Made by a program: the position numbers and the translations under genes. DNA of 46,880 bases from Acutalibacteraceae bacterium (GTDB lineage: Bacteria; Bacillota; Clostridia; Oscillospirales; Acutalibacteraceae): positions 1-46,880 of the forward strand of contig JAZOOE010000011.1 in the NCBI GenBank assembly GCA_045654865.1, given 5' to 3'. The notes under the pieces are model-generated. The model was not told the DNA's origin. It saw only the letters and a program-made list of their open reading frames with translations, and did no database searches. Shown in pieces: positions 1,007 to 21,220 of this stretch. Position 1 is the first letter of the stretch, and each line of letters begins with the position of its first letter.

Positions 1007-1531
1007 TTATTTTTTTGAAAGGTGATTAAGAACAATATCGAGCATTTTGTTATCTGCTGTCATGATTGCACTATCAGCACAAGCCCCCTTGAAGATGACC
1101 TCGGCAAGAGCATCAAGATTCTTTTCAAGGAAAAGCAATACCTCAAAGATACCTTTTTCTATGATCTTTTCGGAGGGAGCTGAATTTTCACATTCAATGA
1201 AATGCTTTGTGCGGATTTCTCCGTCATCGTAATCAAGCTCAAAAATCGTGTTGTCATCAATGGAGCGGTTGTTGACTCTGCAGATAAAGTCTGAAAGTCT
1301 TTCCATCATATCGTCATCATTGATGTCGGCTCTTACTGGGATCTGAGCGTAAATGGTGAAGCTGTCATCTCTTACGACTATCTTGTGTATGACGTTGTTT
1401 ATAACTGCGTTAACAGAGGTGACAAAGGTGAATATGTTTTTGTTTCCGTTAAAGGAATAGTCAACTCCTGTTTTATTGAAAAATTCTGTGAGGACAAGCT
1501 TTGTTGCAACTGAAGTTTTAGTATCTGACAT
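1007..1531 (-). CDS. Small acidic cytoplasmic protein, YbjN/T3SS-chaperone-like (short type, paralog of 2356-2853)
   Basis: The protein is 174 aa with no signal peptide. The RBS is ttAAGGAGAaaaatattATG. It carries the core IPVRADI-x12-FICRVNN-x14-DYDDGEI, which is shared with the three neighbouring genes. The family assignment is from remembered YbjN (PF10722) features and is not HMM-verified. Confidence 0.7.
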   Translation of the reverse strand: MSDTKTSVATKLVLTEFFNKTGVDYSFNGNKNIFTFVTSVNAVINNVIHKIVVRDDSFTIYAQIPVRADINDDDMMERLSDFICRVNNRSIDDNTIFELDYDDGEIRTKHFIECENSAPSEKIIEKGIFEVLLFLEKNLDALAEVIFKGACADSAIMTADNKMLDIVLNHLSKK

Positions 1532-1572
1532 AATATTTTTCTCCTTAATATAATTGATTTTTTTCTGATTGA

Positions 1573-2250
1573 TTATTCCTCTGTGTCATCGATGTCTTCT
1601 GTCGCATCGGTTACGTCCAAGGGGAAGTCGTCTGCATCCTCGCCGTCTGTTGAATCATTAATCTGCTCTGCAACAGCGGCTGCTCTTTCTCTGAGTGCCT
1701 TGATGAGCTCATCCGGTGACGAGCCCTCCATGCCCAATGCCTTTGAAAGCATATCTGCAAGTGAAGTGGGCTTATTATCAGTGCCTTCGACCACTTCTTT
1801 TACCGGCTTGTCCGTGTATAAGATGTCCATAATGCCCTGAGAAAAGCGCTTTACCATGAGGGCGGGGTAGAATAAGGAATTTGCGATCATTTCATCTGTA
1901 AGCTCCATATCGTCGCAGGGAACCTCAAAAACGCTCTGAATCTCTCCGTCATTTCTGTCAAAATCAAAATGAGTTCTGATAAGGCTGTTGTTTATACGGC
2001 AGAAGAATTCATTTATTCTCTTGACTTTAGTTTCATCGGTTGTGTCTACCTTTACGGGGATCTTTCCGAGCACGATAAACTTGTTTTCCTTTATAATGAA
2101 AAGGTAGGAAAGTGACGAAATTGCACCGTCGAGTCCCGTGGCAAGAATAAATCTTCCCTTGTCCTCATCAAAGTGGTATTTGAGCTCGTGCTCATCAAAG
2201 TTGTTGATGATCTTCTGTGCGATTTCGTGTGAGTAAGTTCTTGTTGACAT
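1573..2250 (-). CDS. Small acidic protein, YbjN/T3SS-chaperone-like (long type with a poly-acidic C-terminal tail, paralog of 2890-3399)
   Basis: The ORF track starts at 2286, but AAAGGAGAaattattATG places the RBS inside that extension, so I start at the Met of MSTRTYSHE (2250). The core is IPVKVDT...FFCRINN...DRNDGEI. The tail is DSTDGEDADDFPLDVTDATEDIDDTEE. Confidence 0.7.
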   Translation of the reverse strand: MSTRTYSHEIAQKIINNFDEHELKYHFDEDKGRFILATGLDGAISSLSYLFIIKENKFIVLGKIPVKVDTTDETKVKRINEFFCRINNSLIRTHFDFDRNDGEIQSVFEVPCDDMELTDEMIANSLFYPALMVKRFSQGIMDILYTDKPVKEVVEGTDNKPTSLADMLSKALGMEGSSPDELIKALRERAAAVAEQINDSTDGEDADDFPLDVTDATEDIDDTEE

Positions 2251-2350
2251 AATAATTTCTCCTTTGTGATTTTTATGATTTTTCAAGGGTGTTTCCCTTG
2301 CTGATACTAATATAAACTATCCTATAAATGTATTTTTCGGGGGGTGATTT
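2251..2350 (-). promoter_or_regulatory. Promoter/5' leader of acidic-protein module 1 (duplicate of 3400-3500)
   Basis: This ~95-nt block is nearly identical to 3400-3497 at an offset of about 1150 bp (cccttgctgatactaatataa[a/g]ctatcct[a/g]taaatgtatttttc). It contains a small leader hairpin (caaggg-aaaca-cccttg) and a TATATT-like -10 on the minus strand. Confidence 0.55.
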
Positions 2351-2355
2351 TATGC

Positions 2356-2853
2356 TCAGTCTTTTCGTAACAAGGCTTCAAGCTTGCCTTTTGTCATTTT
2401 TATAGCAGCATCTGCCGAAATACCGTAGAAGATTATGGCAAAAACAGATTCCGCAACCTCCTCTGTGAAGGCGGTAATAGAAAGCAGTGCTTCCGTGATG
2501 ACGTCAACAGAGGGCTCAGAGCCTTCGCTTTCAATAAAGGTCTTACAGCTTATCTCACCGTCCTCGGGATCGATTTCAAGAAGTAAGGAGTTGTGCGTGT
2601 AATTCATTCGGCAGATAAAATCGTATAAAGCCGCAACCGCTCTTTTGTCGGTCATATCTGCTCTGATGGGAAGTAAATTTACAATAGCACAGCCTTCATC
2701 GTCAACTAATATGGATTTGACGGTTTTGCTGATTCTGCCGTGTAAGGATGCATCATATCTGAAAAGTCCGCGCTCCTCATCGTATGCATAGATAATGTCG
2801 AGGTTCTCAAGAATTGAGTGAATGTTTTCGATAAAAGCTTCTGATGTTGTCAT
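2356..2853 (-). CDS. Small acidic protein, YbjN/T3SS-chaperone-like (short type)
   Basis: The protein is 165 aa. The RBS is aAAGGAGAaaaacaaaATG. The core is LPIRADM-x12-FICRMNY-x11-DPEDGEI. It is a paralog of 1007-1531. Confidence 0.7.
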   Translation of the reverse strand: MTTSEAFIENIHSILENLDIIYAYDEERGLFRYDASLHGRISKTVKSILVDDEGCAIVNLLPIRADMTDKRAVAALYDFICRMNYTHNSLLLEIDPEDGEISCKTFIESEGSEPSVDVITEALLSITAFTEEVAESVFAIIFYGISADAAIKMTKGKLEALLRKD

Positions 2854-2889
2854 TTTGTTTTTCTCCTTTGTGTTTTTTTAGTTTTGTTT

Positions 2890-3399
2890 TCAGCTTGCTT
2901 GTCTTCTTGATTCAATTGATTCTTCACACGCTCTTATAATGTCGCATATGTCCTTGTCGGAATGCATGGCAGTAAGAAGCGCTCCGATATAATCTCTGAT
3001 AAGAAGCATTGTGCAGGCGAAGGCGTTTGTTATCATTTCGTCGGAAAGCTCCATATTGTCGAAGTTTACGCTGTATCTTGCCTGTATATCTCCGTCGGAA
3101 GAATCAAAGAAAAAGTGGACACGAGACATGCCGCTGTCTACACGGCAGAAAAATTCATTCATTCTTGCAATAACCTTTTTGTTATCGGGATCGGCGTTTA
3201 CGGGAAGGCTTCCGATAAGTAAAAAGTGACTCTTGTGAATAACGGCGTGAAAATTTATCTGACCGAGAAGAGGGGAAACGGCTGTTGAAAAGTGTATAAT
3301 TCCTGCTTCCTCATCAAAATCGTAATGAGGGCTTTGGTGGGCCTCAAGATGCTCCATAATCTTAGTTGCTGCATCCATTGAATATTCTCTTTCTGACAT
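2890..3399 (-). CDS. Small acidic protein, YbjN/T3SS-chaperone-like (long type)
   Basis: As in 1573-2250, the RBS AAAGGAGAaattattATG lies inside the track's N-terminal extension, so I start at MSEREYS (3399). The core is LPVNADP...FFCRVDS...DSSDGDI. Confidence 0.7.
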   Translation of the reverse strand: MSEREYSMDAATKIMEHLEAHQSPHYDFDEEAGIIHFSTAVSPLLGQINFHAVIHKSHFLLIGSLPVNADPDNKKVIARMNEFFCRVDSGMSRVHFFFDSSDGDIQARYSVNFDNMELSDEMITNAFACTMLLIRDYIGALLTAMHSDKDICDIIRACEESIESRRQAS

Positions 3400-3500
3400 A
3401 ATAATTTCTCCTTTTTGATTTTTATGATTTTCCAAGGTTTTTTTCCCTTGCTGATACTAATATAAGCTATCCTGTAAATGTATTTTTCAGGGGGGGATTT
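3400..3500 (-). promoter_or_regulatory. Promoter/5' leader of acidic-protein module 2 (duplicate of 2251-2350)
   Basis: This is the same conserved block as 2251-2345. It is flanked upstream, in gene orientation, by G7 (3490-3496) and G8 (3506-3513) homopolymers. Confidence 0.55.
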
Positions 3501-5795: not shown

Positions 5796-7085
5796 TTAGC
5801 TTTGACCGGCTTTTTCCTTGGTCGGTAGTTTAAGCCTTATGTCTGCCGTGAACGTCAGATTCTGACAGTCATAAATCAGGTCGCCGTTATATTTCTTAAT
5901 TGTCTTGTTGACGTTTTTCGTTCCGATACCGTGCTCGGCGCGGTTTTTCTTGGTGGTTTTCAGTGTATTATTCTTGCCGATCTTAACGTCCTTTTCCACG
6001 GGATTTGATACGCTGAGAATAAGGTTGTTGTTTCTGACGGCTGACTCTACTCTTATGGTACATCCGCTGAGCCTCTCCGTTGCCTCAATGGCATTGTCAA
6101 TGGTATTGCCGAGAATCGTGCATATATCCTTATCCTCAATTCCCTCTGACGGGAACTGACCGCTGAACACTATTTTATTATCCGACTGAGCGGCAACCAC
6201 TGCCTTTGTGTTCAATATGGTGTCCGCTATGAAATTGCCCGTGGATATTTTATTCAGCGTGCCCGAAATATCCGCATTCATAGCGTTTATATATTCTCTT
6301 GCCCTGTCGGTGCTGCCGCTTTCAAGCAAAGCATTTATAACGATCATGTGATTGCGGTAATCGTGACGGAACTGTCTTAAATTCTCGTCACCCTTGAGCA
6401 TTTTCTCCGAGAAATTTTTCTGATCGTTGAACTGTCGGAGAATTTCGTTTTGCTGATAGGTAAGGGAGAAGATTCTGAAAACGAAGAACAGAACACAGAG
6501 AATAACGCTTATAGTGGAGATAATATAAAGCACGTTATACCATGCGTAGGACTCGCCGAAGCTTTTATAATAGCCCGTCATATCGAAAAACAGAACTGCC
6601 GCAAATATCGGTCGGGGAACGGAGTCGAATACCTGAGGCATTATGTTGTTGGAGGATTGCTTTTGGGTGAATATTATGAAGAAAAGCATCAGAGCGTACA
6701 TTATGATGTATACTATGGCGCGTGCAAAAAGATATTCCGGAATATACGGCGCAAAAAGGGAATAGAACATTTCCATGGTGCACACACATAAAAGCAGGAA
6801 CCAAAGCCGTGTACCTTTTTTTACGTCCTTTGCAAGCCACAACACGCTGAGGGCATAGCAAATGCTTGAAACAACGTCAAGTATCAGCTGCTTGTCCTCC
6901 TCGGTGCCCTTAAAAAAGAAGATACAGAAAACAGCGTTTGCTGCGATTATAGCTCCCACCCCCAGTGCGGCGGGAATATTTTTTTTGAATTTACCTCCCA
7001 GCAGATATACTGAGGCAAAAACAAGAGTTATACATATAAGCACGTCGTGTGCCGTGTATAACAGAAAATCAAGAATGGTTGTCAA
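5796..7085 (-). CDS. AgrC-like membrane sensor histidine kinase (HPK10 type, GHKL ATPase)
   Basis: The N-terminal half is polytopic, with about 6 TM segments. It has the H-box FRHDYRNHMIVINALL, the N-box LGNTIDNAIEA and the G-box EHGIGTKNVNKTIKKYNGDL. It uses a TTG start with GAGGTG 5 nt upstream, 15 nt after the regulator stop. Confidence 0.85.
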   Translation of the reverse strand: MTTILDFLLYTAHDVLICITLVFASVYLLGGKFKKNIPAALGVGAIIAANAVFCIFFFKGTEEDKQLILDVVSSICYALSVLWLAKDVKKGTRLWFLLLCVCTMEMFYSLFAPYIPEYLFARAIVYIIMYALMLFFIIFTQKQSSNNIMPQVFDSVPRPIFAAVLFFDMTGYYKSFGESYAWYNVLYIISTISVILCVLFFVFRIFSLTYQQNEILRQFNDQKNFSEKMLKGDENLRQFRHDYRNHMIVINALLESGSTDRAREYINAMNADISGTLNKISTGNFIADTILNTKAVVAAQSDNKIVFSGQFPSEGIEDKDICTILGNTIDNAIEATERLSGCTIRVESAVRNNNLILSVSNPVEKDVKIGKNNTLKTTKKNRAEHGIGTKNVNKTIKKYNGDLIYDCQNLTFTADIRLKLPTKEKAGQS

Positions 7086-7100
7086 AAAATCACCTCTGGC

Positions 7101-7802
7101 TTACATATCGGCGTATTTGAGAAAGTTCACATATGCCTTGTGGAATAAGGCAAGATTTCTTCTGGATATCTCAATTTTTTCACCGTTTATAAGTGTTATT
7201 ATATGCCCGTCGATTTCGGCAATATATTTCATATTCACAAGAAACGTTCTGTGTGTTCTGAAAAAGCGGAAGCTGTTTATCTCTGAAACAAAGGCAGAAA
7301 GTGCCTTCTGTGAGGTGTAAGAGGTGTTGTTGCATCTTACCGTTGTATATCTTCCGCTTGATTCTATATACATAATCTCGGGTAATGAAACAAATATTGT
7401 GCCCGAGGGCATGGGAATCTCAACTCTGAGATATTGGTCAAAGCTTATAAGAAAGTCATCCAGAGCCTTGAAAAGAGTCTCTTTTTCAATTGGCTTGAGA
7501 AGATAACGGAAGGTGTTTACCTCAAAGCTTTTGAATACATATTCGCTGTATGCTGTTATAAAAATGATAACCGCCCTTTTGTTTGTAAGGCGTATTCTTT
7601 CTGCTATCTCCATTCCCGTTGCATCGGGCAGATTGTAGTCCAAAAGATAAAGATCGTAGTCCTCTGTCGAAGAAAAAAATTCAGCCCCCGTCATAAACGC
7701 ATTCAGCTGATATGAGATATTTTTTTCTTCCATATAGTCAGAAATGAGTGTCTTTAGTATATCAATTGTATAAGCTTCATCTTCACAAATTGCAATTTTC
7801 AT
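7101..7802 (-). CDS. LytTR-family response regulator (AgrA/ComE/PlnC-like)
   Basis: It has the receiver domain MKIAICEDE...LLDYNLPDATG and a C-terminal LytTR domain (IESSGRYTTV...FFRTHRTFLVNMKYI). The RBS is AGGAGAtatgaaatATG. Confidence 0.9.
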   Translation of the reverse strand: MKIAICEDEAYTIDILKTLISDYMEEKNISYQLNAFMTGAEFFSSTEDYDLYLLDYNLPDATGMEIAERIRLTNKRAVIIFITAYSEYVFKSFEVNTFRYLLKPIEKETLFKALDDFLISFDQYLRVEIPMPSGTIFVSLPEIMYIESSGRYTTVRCNNTSYTSQKALSAFVSEINSFRFFRTHRTFLVNMKYIAEIDGHIITLINGEKIEISRRNLALFHKAYVNFLKYADM

Positions 7803-7836: not shown

Positions 7837-7906
7837 AATATAGCACATAAGTAAAAGTATTTTCAATAAAATACGTACGAGTGGTCGATTTTTCGGGCGA
7901 ACGGTA
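7837..7906 (-). promoter_or_regulatory. Putative autoregulated promoter of the LytTR/kinase operon
   Basis: Read on the minus strand, the order is TACCGTTCG (7898-7906), then 20 bp later the degenerate site GACCACTCG (7878-7886), then TTGAAA (7861-7866), an 18-nt spacer, and TGcTATATT (7837-7845). Confidence 0.55.
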
Positions 7907-7971
7907 TTTTTCAGCAAAAAAAATACCGTTCATTACAATAAATATTGTATTATTGTGATTAAGTCTCTATA
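7899..7971 (+). promoter_or_regulatory. Putative LytTR-dependent promoter of LRR protein 1
   Basis: There is a perfect 12-bp inverted repeat, GAACGGTATTTT (7899-7910) / AAAATACCGTTC (7920-7931). The proximal site TACCGTTCATTACA is followed by TATTG and then TATAAT (7966-7971). Confidence 0.6.
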
Positions 7972-8001
7972 ATGAAAGAAAAAAACAAGGAGATAAATGC
8001 T

Positions 8002-11000
8002 ATGAAGAAGCTGTTATTTCTGGCAAGTGTAATTCTTGCTCTGGCTTTTGTTTTTTCTTTTGCCGCGGGTGATGAAAGCTCGGGGCTGTCCCCTGCCGTT
8101 ACGGTATATGCCGCCACTGCCGAGGGAACCTACGGCAATAATATATTCTGGACTATTGACGGTGATACACTTACTATCAGCGGTGAAGGTGCCATGGTTG
8201 ATTATGACCGTGCAAACGATATTCCGTGGTATAAATACAGAGCTGACATTGTTACTGTTAACATTGGGGAAGGTATAACGTCACTCGGATACTATGCTTT
8301 CGGTGAACTTTCTTCTTTAAAGGAAGTCAATATACCGGACAGTGTTACCTCTCTGGGTAAAAGTTTATTTATTGCTTGTGTTTCTCTTGAAAGTATAGAG
8401 CTTCCGTCAGGTATAGAGGAGATTCCCCAGAGTTGCTTTATGGGGTGTTCTTCATTGAAGGAGATAGTTTTTCCTGAAAATCTCAGAGTAATAGGGGTAT
8501 CAGCATTTCATTCCTGTGCTGCTTTGACTGAAATAATTTTTCCCGAAACGCTTGAAGAAATATCTGCGGGTGCATTCGCACAATGTGGTTCACTTGTCAG
8601 AGTTCATATATTTTCTGAAATTGTTTTCTCAGGTAATCCGTTCAGAGACTGTGACAATCTTATAGAATTTAAGGTTAATGAAGAAAACGAACGCTATAAG
8701 GCAATAGATGGCATACTCTACAATAAGGACGGAACTCATATTTATATTTATCCTGTGGGTAGACCTGATAAAACCTTTATTGTTTCCGAAAATATAAAAT
8801 CTATCGGTGTAGGAGTTTTTGAAGGATCAAATTATCTTGAAAGTGTCTATATTTACGCTGACATAATATCTGTTCCATACTATGCTTTTTCAAAGATGGA
8901 ATCTCTTAAATACATTTATCTGCCGCAGAGTATAAGATATATTTATACTTGTGCATTTTCAGAGTGTCCGTCTCTTCGGAGCATCAATATACCTTACGGA
9001 GTTGAAACATTAGATAATCAGGTTTTTTACAAATCAAAGTCTCTTACGAAAATTGTTTTGCCCGCAAGCGTAGTCTCTGTTGATGAAAGTTCATTTGCAT
9101 ATTGTGATGCATTGGAGCAGATTACTGTAATGAATCCAGATTGTGTTATAAAATCTGCATATAACGGTGTATCTGAAAATACGGTAATCAAGGGATATAA
9201 GGGTTCAACAGCGGAGACCTATGCATTGGAAAAGGGCTGTGAATTTGTGGAAATTACGGCATCGGACAGCTTTGATAATAATCTTTTATGGGTGCTTTAT
9301 GAGGACGGTTCTCTTGAAATTTCAGGTGACGGCGAAATGACGGAGTTTGCAAGTGCTTCTGCTGTTCCCTGGTATAAAAATGCAGGAGAAATCAGACAGC
9401 TTCATATAGAAGAGGGTGTAAAAAGTATATCGGCTTTTGCTTTCTATCAATGCAGTGCGCTGAAATCAGTAACGCTTTCCTCTACAATAAAAGAAATCGG
9501 TAATTTTGCTTTCTTTGATTGCATTACACTTGATGCTGTCAATATCGGTGCGTGTGCAGGGCTTGAGATAATCGGGAACAATGCCTTTGGCGGCTGCTCG
9601 TCGCTTTCATCTGTTGATATTCCCGCCGGTGTAAGAGAAATGGGAGAAAACGTATTTCTTCGCTGTACGTCTCTAATGGCTATAAACGTTCATGAAGAAA
9701 ACAACAGCTATTTCTCAGAATCGGGAGTGCTCTTCGGCTCTTACGGGGAAGACGTAGTCCTTATTTGCTATCCTCCTATGAAGGCCGATAAGATTTATAT
9801 TGTTGCAGATAACGTAACGGAAATCGCAGGCAGCGCTTTTGCATACTGCGACCTTATTGAAGAGGTTGAATTTTCACACAGCAGTCAGCTCAGAAGAATC
9901 GGTCAGGCGGCATTCTATGAATGCTCTGCCCTTAAATCCTTTACTGTTCCTCCTATGGTTGAGGAAATAGACGGCAATATTTTTGTTATGTGCTTCAGCC
10001 TTGAGGAAATATACACGGATTTATTCAATGAGCATTTCTTTGCCCGTGACGGCGTTCTTATGGATTGGGATGAAACCACGATCCTCATTTATCCTGCAGG
10101 CTCAAAAAGAACTGAATATATAATCCCCGAAACAATTACCACTATAGCAAAAGAGGCTTTCTGTCATTGTCCCTCTCTTGAAAAGGTGCTGTACCCCCAA
10201 GGAAGTGAGCTTTCCGTAATCAACGAATCTGCTTTTTACAGCTGTGAAAAGCTTTCCTATATAGCTCTTCCCGATTCACTTGAGGAAATCGGCGATTATG
10301 CATTTATGGATTGCACGTCTCTTGGTTTTGTTCATATTCCCGAAAACGTATCCCATATAGGCAGCTTTGCCTTTGGCGGCTGTGCTTCTCTTGAGAAGCT
10401 TGTTTTCTTCACCTTGGATTGTGAAGAATATATGATTATTGATTCTCAGATGTCAGTCACATTCTATGTTTATGAAGGCTCTGAAATTGAAGCTGCGCTC
10501 AGCGGTAAGGGTGAGATAAAATACCTTGTTCAGGTTCCCGAGGATGCGGTTTCCTATGCTGACGGTGTGCTCACGGTAAATCATCTTACGGACATTCCCG
10601 AAGCCGATGATGCATTTTGCTATCCCTGGACAAGATACGTTGGTGAAGCGACAGTTTTTGTTCTCAATCCCGAGCTTTCTGTTGCGGGCGGACTTTTCGA
10701 GGGCTTTTCTGAGGTGAAGACAATTATTGTTAATGCCTCTGCGGATTCCGCTCAGGGCACCATATTCGAAAAGAACGCTTTTGTCGGCTTCTCAAGCCTT
10801 GATATGGTCGTTACCTTTGATGATCTTTCCGTTCGTGACGGCGCTTTTGACGGCAGAGAAGAATTTATAAAATTCTTTGCAGAGGAAAGCATTGTTGTCG
10901 GCGGTGCAGAAAACGTAACCGTATTTTCATTCTCAGAGGGAACAGTCAGCTTTAAAGGAGATGGACTTTCTCTTACTGATTATCAGTTCCTTGATCTTGT

Positions 11001-11376
11001 GAGTGCTGTATGCTACGGCTATGGCGAAGAAACAGTGTTCTATATCGAGTTTTCTGCACTTGAAACAGTAGATTTCGCCTTTGATGCATCCTTTGACAGC
11101 GAAGCGGATGAAATAAGAGTCAGCTATGAGGAAATAAGAATAGTACCTCTTATCTCCTATGACGGCGAAAACTATGAGCCAATATCCTTTAATGATTTCT
11201 GTGTAAATGCGGCATACCGTGAATGGGTGGTTCTGATGCTCTCTCTCGTTGAGGCGGATGAGGAAGAGCCACAGCCTGACAATGACAGTATTCAGGTTAT
11301 CTTTGAAGAGGCAATAGGCTATATTCTTCACGCTATTATCACATTCTTCAATAAGATTCTGAATCTTTTTAAATAA
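8002..11376 (+). CDS. Very large secreted BspA-type leucine-rich-repeat (LRR_5-like) surface protein
   Basis: It has the signal peptide MKKLLFLASVILALAFVFSFAAG. The RBS AAGGAGAtaaatgctATG favours a start at 8002 over the track start at 7972. It contains dozens of ~23-aa repeats of the form I-x-IP-x-SV-x-x-IG-x-x-AF-x-x-C-x-x-L. The C-terminal end is acidic and finishes with the helix GYILHAIITFFNKILNLFK*. Confidence 0.85.
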   Translation: MKKLLFLASVILALAFVFSFAAGDESSGLSPAVTVYAATAEGTYGNNIFWTIDGDTLTISGEGAMVDYDRANDIPWYKYRADIVTVNIGEGITSLGYYAFGELSSLKEVNIPDSVTSLGKSLFIACVSLESIELPSGIEEIPQSCFMGCSSLKEIVFPENLRVIGVSAFHSCAALTEIIFPETLEEISAGAFAQCGSLVRVHIFSEIVFSGNPFRDCDNLIEFKVNEENERYKAIDGILYNKDGTHIYIYPVGRPDKTFIVSENIKSIGVGVFEGSNYLESVYIYADIISVPYYAFSKMESLKYIYLPQSIRYIYTCAFSECPSLRSINIPYGVETLDNQVFYKSKSLTKIVLPASVVSVDESSFAYCDALEQITVMNPDCVIKSAYNGVSENTVIKGYKGSTAETYALEKGCEFVEITASDSFDNNLLWVLYEDGSLEISGDGEMTEFASASAVPWYKNAGEIRQLHIEEGVKSISAFAFYQCSALKSVTLSSTIKEIGNFAFFDCITLDAVNIGACAGLEIIGNNAFGGCSSLSSVDIPAGVREMGENVFLRCTSLMAINVHEENNSYFSESGVLFGSYGEDVVLICYPPMKADKIYIVADNVTEIAGSAFAYCDLIEEVEFSHSSQLRRIGQAAFYECSALKSFTVPPMVEEIDGNIFVMCFSLEEIYTDLFNEHFFARDGVLMDWDETTILIYPAGSKRTEYIIPETITTIAKEAFCHCPSLEKVLYPQGSELSVINESAFYSCEKLSYIALPDSLEEIGDYAFMDCTSLGFVHIPENVSHIGSFAFGGCASLEKLVFFTLDCEEYMIIDSQMSVTFYVYEGSEIEAALSGKGEIKYLVQVPEDAVSYADGVLTVNHLTDIPEADDAFCYPWTRYVGEATVFVLNPELSVAGGLFEGFSEVKTIIVNASADSAQGTIFEKNAFVGFSSLDMVVTFDDLSVRDGAFDGREEFIKFFAEESIVVGGAENVTVFSFSEGTVSFKGDGLSLTDYQFLDLVSAVCYGYGEETVFYIEFSALETVDFAFDASFDSEADEIRVSYEEIRIVPLISYDGENYEPISFNDFCVNAAYREWVVLMLSLVEADEEEPQPDNDSIQVIFEEAIGYILHAIITFFNKILNLFK

Positions 11377-11404
11377 TCATTAATATAATAATACCTTAAT
11401 CACA

Positions 11405-11447
11405 GCAGGCATAAGGCGGTGTAATACCGTTTTGTGCCTGCTTTTTT
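11405..11447 (+). terminator. Intrinsic terminator of LRR protein 1
   Basis: The stem is gcaggcataa (11405-11414) / ttgtgcctgc (11432-11441) with one G-U pair. It is followed by tttttt (11442-11447). Confidence 0.8.
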
Positions 11448-11583: not shown

Positions 11584-11652
11584 TACCGTTCGCCCGAGAA
11601 TCCGACCGTTCATTACAAGTGCTATTGTTTTTTGTTTTTTTGGGCTTTATAA
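11584..11652 (+). promoter_or_regulatory. Putative LytTR-dependent promoter of LRR protein 2
   Basis: The direct repeats TACCGTTCG (11584-11592) and GACCGTTCA (11604-11612) start 20 bp apart. They are followed by TTACA, TATTG (11623-11627) and TATAAT (11647-11652). Confidence 0.65.
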
Positions 11653-11729
11653 TCTGAACAACCCCGATGATGACGGGAAAGAATGAACGGTTCAGAGCCG
11701 TTCTCACAAAACCATATTTTTGAAAGGAA

Positions 11730-14069
11730 ATGAAAAAAATGAAAAAAACAGCTTTGACACTCCTTGCAGCTGCTTTTGTTTTCTCTCTCTCATTTGCCCT
11801 TGCGGCTGACTACAGCGCACTTCTTCCCGAAGCCGCCGCAGCAGAGATTCTTGAAAGCGTAACCGTGGGTGATAATATTACCGCAACGCTTTATTCCGAT
11901 TACACTCTTGTTATTGACGGTGAGGGTGAAATGACCGTTCCGTTAGATTCTGCTGATGTAAGATATATTCACAAGATTGTTATCTCTTCCGGAATAACTG
12001 CAATTTGTGAATCTGCATTCAGCGATTTCAGTTATGTAGAGGAGGTCGTTTTTGAGGAAAACAGCCGTCTTGAAAAAATCGGTATTCATGCATTCAGTAG
12101 CTGTTATAGTCTTAATGAGATAAAAATTCCTGCATCGGTTACTCTTATTGACGAGTATGCATTTGCATATTGCTATAATCTCAATACAATAGTTTTTGAA
12201 GAAAACAGCCGTCTCAGAAATATAGGGGATCAGGCTTTTGTCAATATCGGAATAACAGAGCTTTCAATTCCCTCTTCTGTTGAAGAAATCTCCGGTGGTG
12301 CATTTTCAAGCAACAAAAATCTGAAAAGCGTAACCTTTGGTGCTGATTCAAAACTGAAGAGCTTAGGTGAAACAACCGAAAATCTGCCCTACTTATATTA
12401 TAATGGTGTTTTTGCCTATTGTGAGAAGCTTGAGGAAATAAAAATACCTGCAAGTGTAACAGTTATAGGCAATAAAGCATTTTATTACTGTACTAAGCTT
12501 AATAAAGTAGAAATTGAAGCAGGCAGCAAGCTTACGCGAATTGATGAATATGCATTTGCTAACTGCTATGCTATTGCTGAAATCAATTTCCCCGAAGGAC
12601 TTGTGGAAATAGGCAAAGCAGCATTCAGTAATAACTGCTTAACAAAAATAGCAATCCCTGCAAGCGTTGAAGAAATCGGGGAGAATGCATTTGAAGATTG
12701 TAACTATGTATCAGAGATCAGCTTTGCTTCCGGAAGTAAATTAAAGAGCATCGGTGATAGTGCATTCTCCGGTTGTAATGTATTAGAGAAGCTTCAGCTT
12801 CCCACAGGTCTTAAGACGATAGGTGAAAATGCTTTTGATGGATGCTATAAGCTTGACAGTGTAATTCTTCCTGATGGAATTGAGTTTGTCGGTGAGGCGG
12901 CATTTGTAGGTACAGCGGCTTCCGAAATCAGAATTCCTGCCTCTGTAACCTATTTCGGTGCCGGAAGCTACGGAAAGAATCTGGAGAGATACATTGTAGA
13001 AGACGGTAATGAGGTTTATGCTTCTGATTCAAACGGCGCTCTGTTTTCCAAGGATATGACAACGTTATATGTTTATCCCACAGCTTCACCTGCTAAGGAG
13101 TATACAATTCCTCAGGGTGTGCAGACTATTGCAGATTCAGCGTTTCTTTTTAACCTTAATCTTGAAAGTATTAAAATGCCTGATACTGTGAAAGAAATAG
13201 GGGATTTATCCTTAGCAATAATGTTAAGTCTTAAAGAAATACGTTTGTCATCAAAGCTTGAATCTGTAGGAGAAGAGGCTTTCTTAGGATGCTTTTATCT
13301 TGAAGAGCTTGTAATTCCTGCAAGCGTAAGATATATCGGCGCAGATGCTTTCAGTCTTTTGACTTCTGTAAAGAGAATAGAGATACACTCAAGAACTGTT
13401 GATTGTGATGACACGTTCCTCGGATTTTCTGCATTCCTTACAGATGATGTCGCAGAAAATCAGTTCAGAATAGATGTTATGGCAGATTATTATGAGTTCA
13501 TAATGTTCTATGATATATATGCTCCCGAAAATGAGAACAGACTTTATGAAATAAGTGAAAAGCTGGACGGCTTTGTCAATGAAGAAAATATCAGAACCGA
13601 TATTTATACGGTATATTGCTATGAGGGAGCGGTTGTAGAAGCGTATCTCAAGGAAAACAATGTAAAATATGCTTATCTTTGTGCTCATACTGAAATGGAG
13701 GTTATTCCTGCTGTTACTCCCGGTTGTTCCACGGACGGACTTACAGCCGGCATAAAGTGTGCTCTTTGCGGTGAAATTCTCACAGCACAGCAGATCGATC
13801 CTATGATAGGCCATGCTCCCGAAGTTCAGGGCGAAAAGGCTCCCGAAATCGGTGTTCCCGGATACACGGGTGATATGGTCTGCACCGTTTGCGGCGAGAC
13901 TGTTGAATACGGCGAGGAGATACCCGCTCTTGAGGACAATACTCAGCCCGAATGTGACCATATCTGCCACAAGGATGGTGTGCTGGGTATTCTCTGGAAG
14001 ATAATCGGCTTCTTTGCAAAGCTCTTCAAGACAAATCCCGTTTGTGAATGCGGAGCTGCTCACTATTAA
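11730..14069 (+). CDS. Secreted BspA-type LRR surface protein with C-terminal Cys-rich modules and a CxCGxAHY tail
   Basis: It has the signal peptide MKKTALTLLAAAFVFSLSFALA; the ATG at 11739 is perhaps the true start given the AAAGGA spacing. LRR_5-like repeats run throughout. The C-terminus carries two CxxCG modules and then ECDHICHKDGVLGILWKIIGFFAKLFKTNPVCECGAAHY*. Confidence 0.85.
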   Translation: MKKMKKTALTLLAAAFVFSLSFALAADYSALLPEAAAAEILESVTVGDNITATLYSDYTLVIDGEGEMTVPLDSADVRYIHKIVISSGITAICESAFSDFSYVEEVVFEENSRLEKIGIHAFSSCYSLNEIKIPASVTLIDEYAFAYCYNLNTIVFEENSRLRNIGDQAFVNIGITELSIPSSVEEISGGAFSSNKNLKSVTFGADSKLKSLGETTENLPYLYYNGVFAYCEKLEEIKIPASVTVIGNKAFYYCTKLNKVEIEAGSKLTRIDEYAFANCYAIAEINFPEGLVEIGKAAFSNNCLTKIAIPASVEEIGENAFEDCNYVSEISFASGSKLKSIGDSAFSGCNVLEKLQLPTGLKTIGENAFDGCYKLDSVILPDGIEFVGEAAFVGTAASEIRIPASVTYFGAGSYGKNLERYIVEDGNEVYASDSNGALFSKDMTTLYVYPTASPAKEYTIPQGVQTIADSAFLFNLNLESIKMPDTVKEIGDLSLAIMLSLKEIRLSSKLESVGEEAFLGCFYLEELVIPASVRYIGADAFSLLTSVKRIEIHSRTVDCDDTFLGFSAFLTDDVAENQFRIDVMADYYEFIMFYDIYAPENENRLYEISEKLDGFVNEENIRTDIYTVYCYEGAVVEAYLKENNVKYAYLCAHTEMEVIPAVTPGCSTDGLTAGIKCALCGEILTAQQIDPMIGHAPEVQGEKAPEIGVPGYTGDMVCTVCGETVEYGEEIPALEDNTQPECDHICHKDGVLGILWKIIGFFAKLFKTNPVCECGAAHY

Positions 14070-14095
14070 TTAAATAAACAGCTTCTGATAAAAAA

Positions 14096-14135
14096 GGACA
14101 GAGAACGTAAAAATTCTCTGTCCTTTTGTTTTTTT
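14096..14135. terminator. Bidirectional intrinsic terminator between convergent genes
   Basis: The stem is ggacagagaa (14096-14105) / ttctctgtcc (14114-14123). An A-run lies upstream and ttttgttttttt lies downstream. Confidence 0.85.
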
Positions 14136-14991
14136 ATCTGCATTTAAGCGTGATGCTTATGATTTCGGGGCGGTTGTTGATTCTGAAAGGAAAGGAGCTG
14201 TTGCCGATTCCTCTGCTGATTATCATTTTCGTTCCGTTTTTTTCGTGCATTCCGCTTTCATATTCGGGAAAGAAGCCCTCACCCGGTGAAAAGAGTCCTC
14301 CGATAACGGGCAGACGAATCTGTCCTCCGTGGGCGTGTCCCGTCAGCACGAGATCTGCCGAAAAATCGCAGTAAGAATCAAAAAGCTCGGGACGGTGGGA
14401 CAGCAGTATTGTAAAGCTGTCCTCGTTTTTTATAAGACCGCTTAATGCCTTGGTGATTTTTTCTTTGCTTGAGCTGCCCTTGATATTGTTTATGTCATCT
14501 GTTCCGCAAAGAGTCAGAGTATCGCTCAGCTGTACGCTTCGTCCGTGAAGAATATTGACTCCTGCCTCGGTCAGCTTTCTTTCAAGCTCACGAAAGCTTG
14601 TTATTGCCGTCTCGTGGTTGCCCATAACGAAGTAAACGGGGGCAATTCCCATAAGCTCCTTTGCAATGGCTGCGGCGGTATCAATGTCCGTTCTTCTTTT
14701 GTCAATAAGATCTCCCGTTATAACGATAACGTCAGGCTGTATTTTGCGTACGTTTTCAAAAATTTTATTTTTGAGCAGATGAGAATGAGTGTTGTGAATA
14801 TCCGAAAGATGCACGATTTTATAGCCGTCATCCGTCTGCGACAGACGGGGGCTTTCGCACACAAGCTGAGTGACAACGGGGACGTTGTTTTCAAAAAACA
14901 GATATGAAGCAGTTGCCGAAAGGGCTATAAGAGGAAAAATTATCATAAATGCCTTTTTGTAATTCCTGATTATAAAAACACGGAAAATCAA
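14134..14991 (-). CDS. Membrane-anchored metallophosphoesterase (YaeI-like calcineurin-type phosphoesterase)
   Basis: It carries the motifs VHLSDIHN, TGDLID, GNHE and GHAHGGQ. The TTG at 14991 overlaps the nadC stop; the alternative start is the ATG at 14946 (MIIFPLIAL...). Confidence 0.85.
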   Translation of the reverse strand: MIFRVFIIRNYKKAFMIIFPLIALSATASYLFFENNVPVVTQLVCESPRLSQTDDGYKIVHLSDIHNTHSHLLKNKIFENVRKIQPDVIVITGDLIDKRRTDIDTAAAIAKELMGIAPVYFVMGNHETAITSFRELERKLTEAGVNILHGRSVQLSDTLTLCGTDDINNIKGSSSKEKITKALSGLIKNEDSFTILLSHRPELFDSYCDFSADLVLTGHAHGGQIRLPVIGGLFSPGEGFFPEYESGMHEKNGTKMIISRGIGNSSFPFRINNRPEIISITLKCR

Positions 14992-15824
14992 TCTATTCGC
15001 ATTGAAATATCAAATGCCTTTACGGAGTGGGTGAGTGCACCCATTGAAATAATATCAATTCCCGATGCGGCCTTTTCTCTGATATTTTCAGCGGTGATAT
15101 TGCCGGATGCCTCGGTAAGTGCCCTGCCGTTTATATATTCTACTGCTTCCTTCATCTGAAGGGCGCTCATATTGTCAAGCATAATAATATCAGCACCCGC
15201 GCTTACTGCTTCCTTTACCTCGTCCATATTTCTTGTCTCTACCTCGATTTTGACGGTATGACCGATTTTTTCACGAAGTCGGCTTACTGTTGCGCTGATT
15301 CCGCCGCCTGCATCAATATGGTTATCCTTGAGCATAGCACAGTCGGAAAGATTAAAGCGGTGATTGCGTCCGCCGCCGCAGACAACTGCATATTTTTGCA
15401 GAGCTCTGAGTCCGGGCAGAGTTTTTCTTGTGTCGGCAATGCTGACTCCCGTTCCCTTTACAAGCTCAACACATTCATTTGTTGCGGTTGCAACGCCCGA
15501 GAGATGCTGTAAAAGATTGAGGGCTGTTCTTTCGCCCTGTAAAAGCATAGAAGCCTTGCCGTTCATAGTGGCAATAACGTCGCCCTCTTCTATTTTGTCG
15601 CCGTCCTTTTTGTAGACGGTGAACTGACAATCCTTATCAAGGAGCTGAAAAACTCTCATTGCAACGTCGATTCCGCAAAGCACACCCGTTGCCTTTGATA
15701 CGAATTTTGCCGTTGTAACGGTGTTTTCGGGGATGACGTATGCAGTTGCGGTATCGAGATAGTTTATATCCTCCTCGAGCGCCTTTTTTATAATATCGTC
15801 AATGTAGAACTGAGGTAATAACAT
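14988..15824 (-). CDS. nadC: Nicotinate-nucleotide diphosphorylase (carboxylating)
   Basis: It carries the motifs LQGERTALNLLQHLSGVAT, DTRKTLPGLR and CGGGRNHRFNLSD. The RBS is AAGGAGAcaaacactaATG. Confidence 0.95.
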   Translation of the reverse strand: MLLPQFYIDDIIKKALEEDINYLDTATAYVIPENTVTTAKFVSKATGVLCGIDVAMRVFQLLDKDCQFTVYKKDGDKIEEGDVIATMNGKASMLLQGERTALNLLQHLSGVATATNECVELVKGTGVSIADTRKTLPGLRALQKYAVVCGGGRNHRFNLSDCAMLKDNHIDAGGGISATVSRLREKIGHTVKIEVETRNMDEVKEAVSAGADIIMLDNMSALQMKEAVEYINGRALTEASGNITAENIREKAASGIDIISMGALTHSVKAFDISMRID

Positions 15825-15880
15825 AGTGTTTGTCTCCTTGGATTATCCGAAAACCGCACGTCCGATACCGAGAAAAAATA

Positions 15881-16150
15881 AATTCGGAATTAGGAATTCG
15901 GAGTATTGAAATTTAAGTTTTGGGGATTAAAAAGGGAATTATCGCAAGAAACGGGATTCGGGAAAAATGACAGCGTAAGTCATTTGTTTTGTATCGTCCT
16001 GTTATAAAAATTTTACCAACGAAAAAATTCGGGAATCGAGGAAAATAGAGACAGAAAGAAAAAGCTTAAGCTTCAGCATCTCCGAATTCCGAGTTCTGAA
16101 TTTGCATTTGTCATAAAACTACGTTTTCTCCGAATTCCGAGTTCCGAATT
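15881..16150. repeat. MITE-like 270-bp element with 23-bp terminal inverted repeats built from tandem heptamers, lying in the nadB-nadC spacer
   Basis: The left end is aattcggaattaggaattcggag (15881-15903) and the right end is ctccgaattccgagttccgaatt (16128-16150). The right end's reverse complement matches the left end at 20 of 23 positions. An extra direct copy lies at 16080-16102. Confidence 0.6.
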
Positions 16151-16173
16151 TTCAGCGGTCAAAGAACGCTGAA

Positions 16174-17640
16174 TTATGTATTTTCTTCAGCTTCCTTGAG
16201 GATTATGTATGCGCAGGTTGCAAGAGACAGTGCCTCGAGATATTTTGTTGTCTGAGCATATTTTGCTCCTCTGAGTCTTTTGAGAATGTTGTCTATCTGC
16301 TTCAGACCGAATCTGATGGCACCGGCATCGGGAAGCACGAAGAAGGCTCTTTGCATTATGCTTCTGATTTCCGTTCTCAGCCCCTCGGGCATGGGCGCTC
16401 CCGAGAAATCAAGGGTTACGGGCAGCTCGCTTACCTTGGCAAAGCCGTTTTGCATACATCTTTTTATGTCCTCGGCGGCTCGTCTTGAGAAAACGAGTGC
16501 TTCAAGAAGAGAGTTGCTGGCAAGTCTGTTTTTGCCGTGAACACCCGTATTTGCACATTCGCCGCAGGCATAAAGCCTCGGTACGGTGGTTTTGGAATCT
16601 ATATCAACCTCAATACCGCCCATAAGATAATGCTGACAGGGGAAGACGGGGATGAGATCCTTTGTTATATCTACGCCGTACTGCATGCATCCCTCTGAAA
16701 TAGCGGGGAAGCGCTCCTTAAGGAAGTCGGCGTCCTCGTGGGTTATATCAAGATAGAAGTTGTTGCTTCCGGTTCTTCTGCTTTCGAGAATAATGGATTT
16801 TGAAACGACGTCGCGGGGAGCAAGCTCAAGACGGTCGTCATATCTGTCCATAAATCTTTCCTTATTGCAGTTAAGAAGATATGCGCCCTCACCGCGTACG
16901 GATTCGCTTATAAGGAACTGCTCGCCGTTTTCGGAATTAAAGGCTGTGGGATGGAACTGAATATAGCTGAGATTTTTGATTTTTGCGCCCAGCTCGTAAG
17001 CGATTCTGATACCGTCACCCGTTGCGGATTTGGGGTTTGTTGTATACTTATAAACTCTTCCCACACCACCCGTGCAGAGCATACAATAGCTGCAGAATAC
17101 GCTTGAATATTCTCCGTCTCTGAGAATATCCGCTCTGAAGCCGCTTCTTACTCTTACAAGACGGCAGAGAACGGTATTTTCCATATAGATAATATTTTCT
17201 CTCTGTTCAACCTGACCGAGAAGGCCTCTCACCATTTCGGCACCGGTGCAGTCCTTGTAATGCACGATTCTTCTTTTACAGTGACCGCCCTCAAGAGTCA
17301 TATCCAGCTCGCCCTGAGCATCACGGTCAAAGCGCACGCCCATTTCCATAATTTTTCGTACGTCATCGGGGCCCTCGCGCACAAGAATATCCACGCTTTC
17401 GGGATCGTTTTCGTGTCTTCCCGCAATAAAGGTATCCTTTATATGAAGATCAAAGCTGTCATCCTCCAAGTTGAGCACGGCGGCAACACCGCCCTGTGCA
17501 AGATTTGAGTTTGACGTGGTTTTTGAATATTTTGAGAGTATCATTACGCTTGTATCGGATGCAAACTGTAATGCACCGTACATGCCTGCAACGCCCGAGC
17601 CTACAACAAGAACGTCAACAACCTGAGTATTATTTGCCAT
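16174..17640 (-). CDS. nadB: L-aspartate oxidase
   Basis: It has the FAD fold VDVLVVGSGVAGM and the typical NadB length and motifs (HPTA, RLYACGECA). The track's GTG start at 17652 is itself part of the GAGGTG RBS, so I prefer the ATG at 17640 (MANNTQ...). Confidence 0.95.
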   Translation of the reverse strand: MANNTQVVDVLVVGSGVAGMYGALQFASDTSVMILSKYSKTTSNSNLAQGGVAAVLNLEDDSFDLHIKDTFIAGRHENDPESVDILVREGPDDVRKIMEMGVRFDRDAQGELDMTLEGGHCKRRIVHYKDCTGAEMVRGLLGQVEQRENIIYMENTVLCRLVRVRSGFRADILRDGEYSSVFCSYCMLCTGGVGRVYKYTTNPKSATGDGIRIAYELGAKIKNLSYIQFHPTAFNSENGEQFLISESVRGEGAYLLNCNKERFMDRYDDRLELAPRDVVSKSIILESRRTGSNNFYLDITHEDADFLKERFPAISEGCMQYGVDITKDLIPVFPCQHYLMGGIEVDIDSKTTVPRLYACGECANTGVHGKNRLASNSLLEALVFSRRAAEDIKRCMQNGFAKVSELPVTLDFSGAPMPEGLRTEIRSIMQRAFFVLPDAGAIRFGLKQIDNILKRLRGAKYAQTTKYLEALSLATCAYIILKEAEENT

Positions 17641-17658
17641 CTGATTCGTCACCTCTGC

Positions 17659-18570
17659 TTAGCCAAGTCTTAACATCTCGTTTATGGGATGCAGAGCCTT
17701 TTCAATGAGCTGTCTGTCGAGCTCTATTTCTTCTCCGCCCTCGCCCTTAAGAGCCGCAAGCACCTTTTCGGGTGTTACGTATTTCATATCGCGGCAGACG
17801 AGCTTGTCGGGACAAAGATAATAAAAGCTCTTTTCGGGGTATTTGGGAATAAGATAATCGGCAACACCCTTTTCCGTACCGATTATCACGGGCTTGTCGC
17901 TTGCAAGAGCAAAGTCGATTATTTCTGCTGTTGAGCCTGCCATATCTGCGTGACGTACAGCCTCGGGAGCACATTCGGGATGAATTGCAAGAAGTGCATC
18001 GGGATGCAGGGCTTTTGCCTTTAATACGTCCTCTTCGGAGATCTGTGCGTGAATAGGGCAGTAGCCGTCCCAGAGAACGATATTCTTATCGGGAAAGCTG
18101 TCTCTTACAAAGCTGCCTAAGTTTTTGTCGGGGATAAAAAGTATTTCGGGTGCATCAAGCTGTTCAACTATTTTAAGTGCGCTTGACGAGGTTACGCATA
18201 CGTCACATTCTGCCTTCAGCGCGGCAGTTGTATTTATATACGCCACAACCCTTGCCTCAGGGTTGTTTTTCTTGTATTCTCTCACTCTGTCGGGGCTTAT
18301 CATTTCTGCCATAGGACAGGTGGCTTCGGGGGCGGGAAGAATAACCGTGGTTTCGGGGGAAAGTATTTTAACGCTTTCCGCCATAAAGCGGACACCGCAC
18401 ATAATTACTCTTTTTGCTCCTGCCGAAAGGCTCTTCTTTGCGAGTGCAAAGGAATCTCCCGTGATGTCGGCAAGCTCAATGATTTCGGGTGGCTGATAGG
18501 TATGTGCAAGTATCAGTGTACCGGTTTTCTCCTTAAGCCTTCTTATCTCATTAAGTATGTCCTTGTTCAT
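17659..18570 (-). CDS. nadA: Quinolinate synthase
   Basis: ILAHTYQPPEIIELADITGDSFAL and the three-fold repeat architecture are typical of NadA. The RBS GGGGGAttattATG favours a start at 18570 (MNKDIL). That is only 10 nt after the stop of the kinase gene at 18581. Confidence 0.95.
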   Translation of the reverse strand: MNKDILNEIRRLKEKTGTLILAHTYQPPEIIELADITGDSFALAKKSLSAGAKRVIMCGVRFMAESVKILSPETTVILPAPEATCPMAEMISPDRVREYKKNNPEARVVAYINTTAALKAECDVCVTSSSALKIVEQLDAPEILFIPDKNLGSFVRDSFPDKNIVLWDGYCPIHAQISEEDVLKAKALHPDALLAIHPECAPEAVRHADMAGSTAEIIDFALASDKPVIIGTEKGVADYLIPKYPEKSFYYLCPDKLVCRDMKYVTPEKVLAALKGEGGEEIELDRQLIEKALHPINEMLRLG

Positions 18571-18580
18571 AATAATCCCC

Positions 18581-19933: not shown

Positions 19934-19936
19934 AGC

Positions 19937-20671: not shown

Positions 20672-21220
20672 TTATTTGTTTTTCTTTCTGAAAATAACAA
20701 GCTTTGATGCAACGTAATTGAAAATTACAACGAATACGGCAATTGCAAGCTTTGCTATAAGGTGATGAAGTCCTACTGTAATGAGAAGCATAAAAACAAG
20801 CTCCTCGAATATTACAAAGGAGAGAATTCTTGCTCCGAGAAAGGAGATAAGTTCTCTGATGACGGTTTTTATTTTCCATGAGCTGCTTTCAAAAACGAAA
20901 AGCTTGTTCGTGACGAATGCGAAAAGCACGGAAACAATCCAGGCTATTGCGTTGATGAGAAGCACCCACTTTATCTCAAAGGGAGTGTCTGAGATATTCA
21001 GCGTGAATAATATTCTTTCCTCATAGCTCTCACCCACCATCGCACCTACCGAAAGATAGGTTGCAACGTTTACTACCGTGGTGCAGACACCGAATACAAG
21101 GTATGAAATTATCTCGTACTGTAAAAGCTTTTCAACTCCGGGGATTTTAAGAAGCTTTTTGAATACGGGCACGGAGAATATTCTGTTGTAGATTTTTTCG
21201 TAAAATTCTTTAAGTTTCAT
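20672..21220 (-). CDS. GtrA-family membrane protein
   Basis: The protein is 182 aa with 4 TM segments. It carries the GtrA-like motifs FAFVTNKLFVFES and FNYVASKLVIFRK. Confidence 0.8.
   Translation of the reverse strand: MKLKEFYEKIYNRIFSVPVFKKLLKIPGVEKLLQYEIISYLVFGVCTTVVNVATYLSVGAMVGESYEERILFTLNISDTPFEIKWVLLINAIAWIVSVLFAFVTNKLFVFESSSWKIKTVIRELISFLGARILSFVIFEELVFMLLITVGLHHLIAKLAIAVFVVIFNYVASKLVIFRKKNK

Follow-up and report, generated by a model that had tools for sequence, protein, structure and literature searches.

The present analysis concerns a divergent control region in a 46,880-nucleotide stretch of DNA (hereafter the window) from an Acutalibacteraceae bacterium (contig JAZOOE010000011.1). 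At this place, a 199-bp stretch separates the gene of a LytTR-type response regulator, read leftward, from that of a leucine-rich repeat (LRR) protein, LRR1, read rightward. The regulator gene is followed by the gene of a histidine kinase, and LRR1 by that of its tandem paralogue, LRR2.

5796-7085, minus strand: membrane histidine kinase (HATPase_c_5, 1e-22; SPOB_a), of the GHKL, AgrC/ComD (HPK10) type
7101-7802, minus strand: response regulator (RR1), 233 amino acids (Pfam Response_reg, 6e-15; LytTR, 1e-21)
8002-11376, plus strand: LRR1, 1124 amino acids, BspA-type LRR_5, with a signal-peptide-like N-terminal sequence
11730-14069, plus strand: LRR2, 779 amino acids, BspA-type LRR_5

The regulator has many orthologues, with 57-79% identity, and where a source is named it is an uncultured member of the Acutalibacteraceae or the Clostridia, from an animal or human gut; an exact look-up of the window protein itself in public assemblies returned no record. 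Its phospho-acceptor set (D8, D55, T83 and K103) is invariant among 22 orthologues. The only solved structure matching both of its domains is that of ComE (4cbv; residues 1-205, E = 5e-8), and in sequence the protein is more ComE-like than AlgR-like. The N-terminal region of the kinase is long and hydrophobic, with about six membrane segments counted by eye, and its H-box reads FRHDYRNH. Regulator and kinase alone make up the operon: on the 3′ side of the kinase gene, a hairpin is followed by the gene of a GHL6 glycosidase, which has its own promoter.

Within the 199 bp, the following elements are found, the -35 and -10 boxes being predicted.

7906 to 7898, minus strand: distal box of the regulator promoter, TACCGTTCG, then a conserved spacer, CCCGAAAAATC
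7886 to 7878, minus strand: proximal box of the regulator promoter, GACCACTCG, 20 bp from the distal box, start to start
7866 to 7861, minus strand: -35 box of the regulator promoter, TTGAAA
7845 to 7837, minus strand: extended -10 box of the regulator promoter, TGcTATATT, after an 18-nucleotide (nt) spacer
7899-7931: inverted repeat with arms GAACGGTATTTTT (7899-7911) and AAAAATACCGTTC (7919-7931), 13/13 complementary, and a 7-nt loop
7924-7932, plus strand: single LRR1 box, TACCGTTCA, with a conserved TTACA extension to 7937
7945-7950, plus strand: -35-like TTGTAT of the LRR1 promoter, 21 nt from the box start
7968-7973, plus strand: -10 box of the LRR1 promoter, TATAAT, after a 17-nt spacer
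7988-7993, plus strand: ribosome binding site of LRR1, AAGGAG

Of the three boxes in the region, two thus serve the regulator operon and one LRR1. On the leftward side, the pair is arranged as TACCGTTCG-N11-GACCACTCG, a direct repeat with a 20-bp period. The order announced by an earlier, sequence-only reading of this DNA (a box, a degenerate box 20 bp further on, TTGAAA, an 18-nt spacer and TGcTATATT) was found there as described. On the rightward side, the box together with its extension reads TACCGTTCAttaca, and its start lies 21 nt ahead of the LRR1 -35. The TATAAT proposed for this promoter is present, at 7968-7973 and not at 7966-7971. The nine bases located 20 nt upstream of the LRR1 box are GTATTTTTC, and they overlap the distal box of the regulator promoter on the opposite strand.

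The same reading had been built around a 12-bp inverted repeat between the LytTR regulator and LRR1. Its placement is borne out by a Pfam scan of the flanking genes and the match is indeed perfect, over arms of 13 bp each (7899-7911 and 7919-7931). In first-order Markov simulations of the window, a perfect repeat of at least 13 bp with a loop of 3-20 nt appeared in 1 of 100 (mean 0.01). As single-strand DNA, the repeat is predicted to fold with -11.7 kcal/mol (z = -5.8). Inspection of the arms indicates what the repeat is, namely the head-to-head junction of two oppositely oriented boxes, each with an A-tract before it. As judged from the related loci described below, it is not a functional unit, each arm belonging to a different promoter, since the distance from each box to its own -35 is fixed while the arms lie anywhere from 6 to 50 nt apart in the relatives. 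In total, four perfect inverted repeats of at least 13 bp with a loop of 3-20 nt occur in the window. The three others are at 14092-14127, 30517-30548 and 37711-37743; that at 14092 sits between convergent genes ending at 14069 and 14134, and is therefore probably a bidirectional terminator.

Box pairs of the same kind precede two further genes of the window, LRR2 and the gene of a secreted dockerin protein. These two promoters were absent from the sequence-only reading.

11584-11653, plus strand: LRR2 promoter, with boxes TACCGTTCG (11584-11592) and GACCGTTCA (11604-11612), -35 TTGTTT (11625-11630) and -10 TATAAT (11648-11653)
34080 to 34012, minus strand: dockerin-gene promoter, with boxes TACCGTTCA (34080 to 34072) and GACCGTTCA (34060 to 34052), -35 TTGCTT (34039 to 34034) and -10 TAAAAT (34017 to 34012)
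31703-33961, minus strand: secreted dockerin protein, 752 amino acids, with a C-terminal dockerin; third putative target gene

The LRR2 promoter, which comes after a terminator (11404-11442), can be written TACCGTTCGcccgagaatccGACCGTTCAttacaagtgctaTTGTTT-17 nt-TATAAT, and the dockerin promoter TACCGTTCAtaccaaaaatcGACCGTTCAttacatagcctaTTGCTT-16 nt-TAAAAT. The corresponding string of the regulator promoter, TACCGTTCGcccgaaaaatcGACCACTCG, shows 2 differences from that of LRR2 across the first 20 bases. The 20-bp period, with its 11-nt spacer, is found in all three pairs of the window as in every other locus, and the proximal box starts 20-21 nt before the predicted -35 in the four window promoters as well as in the foreign promoters aligned. 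The proximal half, TACCGTTCAttaca...TTG at 21 nt, is common to the LRR1, LRR2 and dockerin promoters. In these three promoters, the -35 hexamers are weak (TTGTAT, TTGTTT and TTGCTT, respectively) and the -10 hexamers are good, a combination typical of activator-dependent promoters. On the regulator side, TTGAAA, the retained 18-nt spacer and the extended -10 suggest basal expression plus feedback.

Counts of the motif in the window point in the same direction. The window contains the strict pair [TG]ACC[GA][TC]TC[GA]-N11-[TG]ACC[GA][TC]TC[GA] three times; none of 100 simulations produced it. The heptamer ACCGTTC is present in 14 copies where 3.6 are expected (simulation maximum 8), and half of these (7/14) fall within the four promoter regions. 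Comparison with the 9-mer consensus of the LytTR family, [TA][AC][CA]GTTN[AG][TG] (PMC5600425), is less telling. The fit claimed for the arms does exist, in a register shifted by one base: ACCGTTCAT agrees at 9/9 positions, ACCGTTCGC at 8/9 and ACCACTCGT at 7/9. This generic consensus has 38 occurrences in the window, against about 46 predicted from its degeneracy (a rough estimate), with the strict pair only once. A fit to the 9-mer alone therefore carries little weight, the consensus being at chance frequency.

Further evidence comes from a set of 19 distinct related loci, 18 of which include the regulator upstream region; the remaining one (L009) ends 144 bp upstream of the regulator gene and was left out of these 18. 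The motif is conserved across the set in the same architecture, and it is linked to the regulator gene and to genes of secreted LRR, dockerin and FN3 proteins. In 19/19 related loci, the RR1 orthologue has a box pair directly upstream, whatever the other neighbours. Thirteen foreign regulator promoters, whose regulator proteins are 58-79% identical to that of the window, were aligned with the window promoter. The resulting 14 sequences align free of gaps from the distal box through the -10. Expressed in bits per column, the information content is 1.57 for the distal box, 1.23 for the inter-box spacer (CCCGAAAA), 1.40 for the proximal box, 1.22 for the -35 and 1.54 for the -10; flanks and other spacers are at 0.41-0.77. 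At the -35, TTGAA is found in 12 of the 14 loci and TTG in all of them, and the 18-nt spacer between -35 and -10 is retained in 14/14.

The LRR-side promoter is likewise recovered in the relatives. Twelve foreign divergent promoters align on GACCGTTC[A/G]TTACA, TTGA(C/A) and TATAAT, with the distance from box to -35 fixed at 21 nt in 12/12. Profiles were then built for nhmmer with the window left out. That of the 13 foreign regulator promoters gives exactly three strong matches in the window, namely the promoters of the regulator (37.5 bits, E = 7e-11), of LRR2 (34.8 bits, E = 5e-10) and of the dockerin gene (28.3 bits, E = 5.5e-8), the best score among 50 block-shuffled windows being 12.2 bits. 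The profile of the 12 foreign divergent promoters scores 27.2 bits (E = 2e-7) at 7925-7975, for a best shuffle of 10.3. Profile matches with E < 0.1 are all located 13-250 nt upstream of an open reading frame (ORF), typically 45-100 nt, except one at 3555-3510 of L001, where no ORF was found. The target ORFs begin with a signal-peptide-like sequence; those scanned encode BspA LRR_5, FN3 or dockerin proteins, two having no Pfam match. Further downstream in the related loci, additional LRR, FN3 and dockerin genes have their own box pairs after a terminator.

The divergent box stands head-to-head with the regulator box pair in 17 of the 18 loci, L035 being the exception. In 15 of the 17, its neighbour is a BspA LRR_5 protein (nine scanned here, with a signal-peptide-like start, and six taken from precomputed LRR_5 annotation). 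In L030, the neighbour is a 402-residue protein without annotation on record, which runs into the contig end. In L033, the LRR/FN3 genes are separated from the box pair by a gene pair for an extracytoplasmic function (ECF) sigma factor and an anti-sigma factor. The insert itself, at 1989-3340 of that locus, comprises the ECF sigma factor and a 236-residue partner gene; the divergent box pair is retained, with ACCACT cores, and faces the insert. At 2916-3500 of L035, the LRR neighbour is absent and a 143-residue ORF takes its place.

What varies among the loci is the distance between the two sides. The gap between head-to-head 9-mers takes values of 6, 7, 8, 12, 16, 17 (the window and L030), 18, 27, 28, 39, 40 and 48-50 nt, and box centres are 15-59 bp apart across 17 loci. 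Complementarity between the arms in other loci is limited to the 7-8 bp core. Only in the loci with long spacers (L004, L006, L007, L008 and L010) is the LRR-side box preceded, at 20-21 bp, by another, weaker one, which produces a 2+2 layout. The compact 2+1 layout of the window is found in its closer relatives (L001, L002, L022, L023, L025, L030, L031 and L032). Box variants (ACCATTC, ACCACTC and GCCGTT) showed, by eye, no clean covariation with regulator lineage. Two loci deserve mention for the loop between the arms: the spacer of L032, GGTATTTTTTCTGAATTACC, is a version 5 nt shorter than that of the window, and in L022 TTTTTTCAGCG is found, turned the other way with respect to the regulator gene. 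These differences hint that the loop may have been inverted or rebuilt through recombination between the repeat arms.

Considering these data, we think it likely that the region consists of two back-to-back promoters of the sigma-70 type, each depending on boxes read by the LytTR domain of the adjacent regulator. All computational tests run (alignments, profiles and neighbour genes) agree with the LytTR-box divergent promoter that the sequence-only reading had proposed for the two-component system and the LRR gene. In this scheme, the AgrC-like membrane kinase (5796-7085) would phosphorylate the regulator, a dimer of which would bind TACCGTTCG-N11-GACCACTCG, about -76 to -48 of its own promoter (counted back from the predicted -10). 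Binding would raise transcription of the regulator-kinase operon, a positive feedback. In the LRR1 promoter, the single opposite box, TACCGTTCAttaca, spanning roughly -56 to -43, would be occupied by a further regulator molecule, which would recruit RNA polymerase to the weak -35 (TTGTAT). The same regulator would turn on LRR2 and the dockerin gene through full box pairs. The 13-bp inverted repeat would then be a by-product, A-tract-preceded boxes having been brought head-to-head by spacer shrinkage in this lineage. The adjacent regulator is the presumed binder, and the boxes would be activator sites, as suggested by their position and by analogy with known systems. The single LRR1 box probably binds more weakly than the pairs. 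If so, a higher level of phosphorylated regulator might be required for LRR1 than for LRR2 or the dockerin gene, and the one-box LRR1 promoter would respond at a threshold different from that of the paired promoters.

Several findings weigh against this scheme. The LRR1 promoter has one box, whereas the repeats bound by LytTR activators are described as coming in pairs. The 20-bp period, corresponding to an 11-nt spacer, is one below the 21-22 bp reported for AgrA and SilA. With its good TTGAAA and extended -10, the regulator promoter may be largely constitutive. At the locus, no gene for an autoinducer peptide or its processing stands beside the kinase gene. Finally, the window encodes a second LytTR two-component system, with RR2 at 19937-20647.

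This second system brings up a first alternative, in which the boxes would be read by a different protein, RR2 or a regulator encoded elsewhere, the adjacent regulator being only a target. RR2 is also a REC and LytTR protein associated with an AgrC-type kinase, and related LytTR proteins recognize similar cores, as seen from the family consensus and the AlgR core. However, RR2 is only 31% identical to RR1, neither profile matches upstream of the RR2 operon, and the pair accompanies the RR1 gene in the 19 loci. Since the boxes are linked to the RR1 gene in every related locus examined, RR2 is an unlikely binder, and we regard another reader in general as fairly unlikely. The inverted repeat calls for other explanations. 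A symmetric dimer, for instance a repressor of the Xre, TetR or LacI type, could use it as a palindromic operator and repress both promoters. The repeat is perfect, far beyond chance, it has the typical position of an operator between divergent promoters, and an Xre-type helix-turn-helix protein is encoded in the window at 28552-29241. A dimer of fixed geometry could not, however, tolerate the 6-50 nt gaps between arms of the relatives, in which only the 7-8 bp core is complementary. Moreover, each arm is locked to its own -35, and the 9-mer forms direct, not inverted, repeats at three other window promoters. As the half-site spacing is not fixed among orthologous regions, the palindromic operator was rejected; we hold it to be very unlikely.

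The repeat could also act as a nucleic-acid hairpin, that is as an RNA terminator or attenuator or as a DNA cruciform, for which its predicted single-strand stability would speak. Yet the stem is A/T-rich, its length is not conserved (7-8 bp in relatives), no T-run follows it on either strand, and the terminator scan did not call it. An Rfam scan of the whole window gave no family match and no riboswitch. Neither promoter should transcribe the repeat, which is upstream of both predicted -35 boxes and has both flanking genes pointing away from it. The absence of a T-run, the divergent genes, the position upstream of both promoters and the empty Rfam scan led to rejection of the terminator or RNA-hairpin reading, and a hairpin of any kind seems hardly credible here. 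Lastly, LRR1 and LRR2 are tandem paralogues whose promoters share ACCGTTCATTACAA...TATTGT, from which it might be supposed that the common motifs are leftovers of a promoter duplicated along with its gene, deprived of any regulatory role. This is highly improbable: the boxes also precede non-paralogous genes (regulator operon, dockerin protein and FN3 proteins), and in genomes with 58-79% regulator identity boxes, -35 and -10 are kept whereas box flanks are at background level.

Starting from two promoters controlled by the adjacent regulator, a more elaborate arrangement may be envisaged, in which the three boxes would form one coupled nucleoprotein switch, the LRR-side box being activated only together with the regulator dimer opposite. 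Such a switch would require that the DNA bend or that regulator molecules make higher-order contacts, and that the two sides keep to a preferred helical phase. If it held, the feedback loop and the LRR adhesin would fire together without a peptide pheromone in these relatives of Ruminococcus bromii, and the trigger would be the signal sensed by the orphan AgrC-like kinase. We consider such coupling unlikely. In the first 13 loci, distances followed 10.5n + 5.5 bp, a regularity matched by 1.5% of random sets. With six added loci this figure rose to 15%, with a clear exception of 21 bp in L032, and the apparent helical phasing between the promoters was no longer significant.

Among the closest known systems is the agr locus of S. 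aureus. There too, divergent promoters, P2 and P3, one of which drives the regulator/kinase operon, carry just upstream of the -35 imperfect direct repeats that fit [TA][AC][CA]GTTN[AG][TG], and a REC and LytTR regulator is associated with an AgrC-type kinase (PMC5600425, PMC4227749). The spacer between -35 and -10 is non-optimal in both, with 18 nt at the autoregulated promoter described here and 18 and 20 nt in agr (PMC5600425, PMC4227749). The proximal AgrA repeat is centred near -60 (PMC4227749, PMC5600425). The sequence-only reading had likened the layout to that of the agr P2/P3 or pln divergent promoters. One pair per promoter (2+2) with a 12-13 bp spacer is found in agr, whereas the window has a 2+1 arrangement, an 11-nt spacer and a 20-bp period, three boxes instead of four because the LRR1 promoter has only one. 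In addition, no agrBD-like peptide or processing gene adjoins the present system, and the target is a secreted LRR protein, whereas that of agr is a regulatory RNA. In the related loci also, neither a conserved small gene nor an AgrB or ABC-exporter neighbour was seen. Thus, of the "auto-induced switch" once proposed for the region, what is left is a predicted positive feedback of the regulator on its own operon, the locus having no peptide gene.

The sil system of S. pyogenes (P3/P4, controlled by SilA) and the pln system of L. plantarum share with the present one a LytTR regulator acting on several promoters, some of them divergent, two repeats, and a regulon defined through a conserved promoter arrangement. 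SilA uses 10-bp repeats with an 11-bp spacer (PMC2766830). In sil and pln, however, the regulator acts on genes for bacteriocins and transporters, and the locus includes a gene for a peptide pheromone; the putative targets here are surface or secreted BspA-LRR, dockerin and FN3 proteins, and no peptide gene is seen. The footprinted sites of P. aeruginosa AlgR, CCGTTCGTC (algD RB1/RB2 and algC ABS1) and CCGTTCATC (rhlI) (PMC4064291), have cores nearly identical to those of the window, CCGTTCGCC and CCGTTCATT (CCGTTCG/CCGTTCA). AlgR can also act through a single site or an inverted one, as in algD RB3 (PMC4064291). Its sites differ in being scattered from -702 to +391 of transcription starts, with no fixed 20-bp pairing, and AlgR belongs to a Gram-negative system with the AlgZ/FimS kinase. 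Taken together, box position and direct-repeat architecture appear to match AgrA, SilA and the family consensus. Judged by its sequence, the region is an ordinary, though conserved, member of the LytTR-box control regions of the AgrA/SilA/PlnC/ComE kind, and its core is AlgR-like. It departs from the family in the 20-bp period, in the conserved single-box promoter facing an autoregulated pair, and in the want of a linked peptide gene.

Mechanistically, the system is an expected variation on a well-known theme. Its value lies in a concrete predicted regulon for uncultured Acutalibacteraceae of the gut and rumen. One AgrC-type two-component system appears to control, besides its own synthesis, a set of secreted proteins (BspA-type LRR, dockerin and FN3) of the sort that mediates adhesion and cell-surface assembly. 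In the library of papers searched, no LytTR regulator was linked to the regulation of BspA or LRR proteins, and regulation of BspA-like proteins in gut Firmicutes appears unstudied. The region also adds a Firmicute example of an AlgR-like CCGTTC core and a conserved case of single-box LytTR promoter. With the box definition TACCGTTCGCCCGAAAAnnGACCGTTCATTACA-N7-TTG, the whole regulon could be predicted from complete genome sequences of the family. A scan of JGI metagenome contigs for TACCGTTCGCCCG-N7-RACCGYTC returned three matches, roughly as many as chance was estimated to give, each of them in unrelated DNA with a G+C content of 56-59%.

Some observations can be made on the surroundings of the putative targets. 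In the 5′ leader of LRR2, at 11685-11703 (plus strand), about 30 nt past the -10, an inverted repeat of the same core is found, GAACGG-ttcagag-CCGTTC. It was called by the terminator scan on the minus strand, and a different hairpin, AACGGA-taactg-TCCGT, occupies the equivalent place in L022. The repeat may represent an additional site for the regulator or a stem-loop of the leader. The dockerin box pair lies about 22 kb from the regulator. No box precedes the upstream neighbours of the dockerin gene, 34579-36096 (Big_3 and dockerin) and 36118-37434 (Listeria-Bacteroides repeat). This distribution suggests a cellulosome- or amylosome-like surface system, only some members of which would belong to the regulon.

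Elsewhere in the window, the following genes may be noted.

18581-20647, minus strand: second LytTR system, with RR2 (19937-20647, REC and LytTR) and kinase HK2 (18581-19933, HATPase_c_5, AgrC-type), directly downstream of genes for a GtrA-like protein (20672-21220) and a major facilitator superfamily protein (21271-23763)
1007-3435, minus strand: four consecutive ORFs (174, 237, 165 and 181 amino acids) downstream of the GHL6 glycosidase gene, with no Pfam match at E <= 0.001
14988-18597, minus strand: NAD biosynthesis cluster, with nadC (14988-15824), a nadB-like FAD oxidoreductase gene (16174-17652) and nadA (17659-18597)

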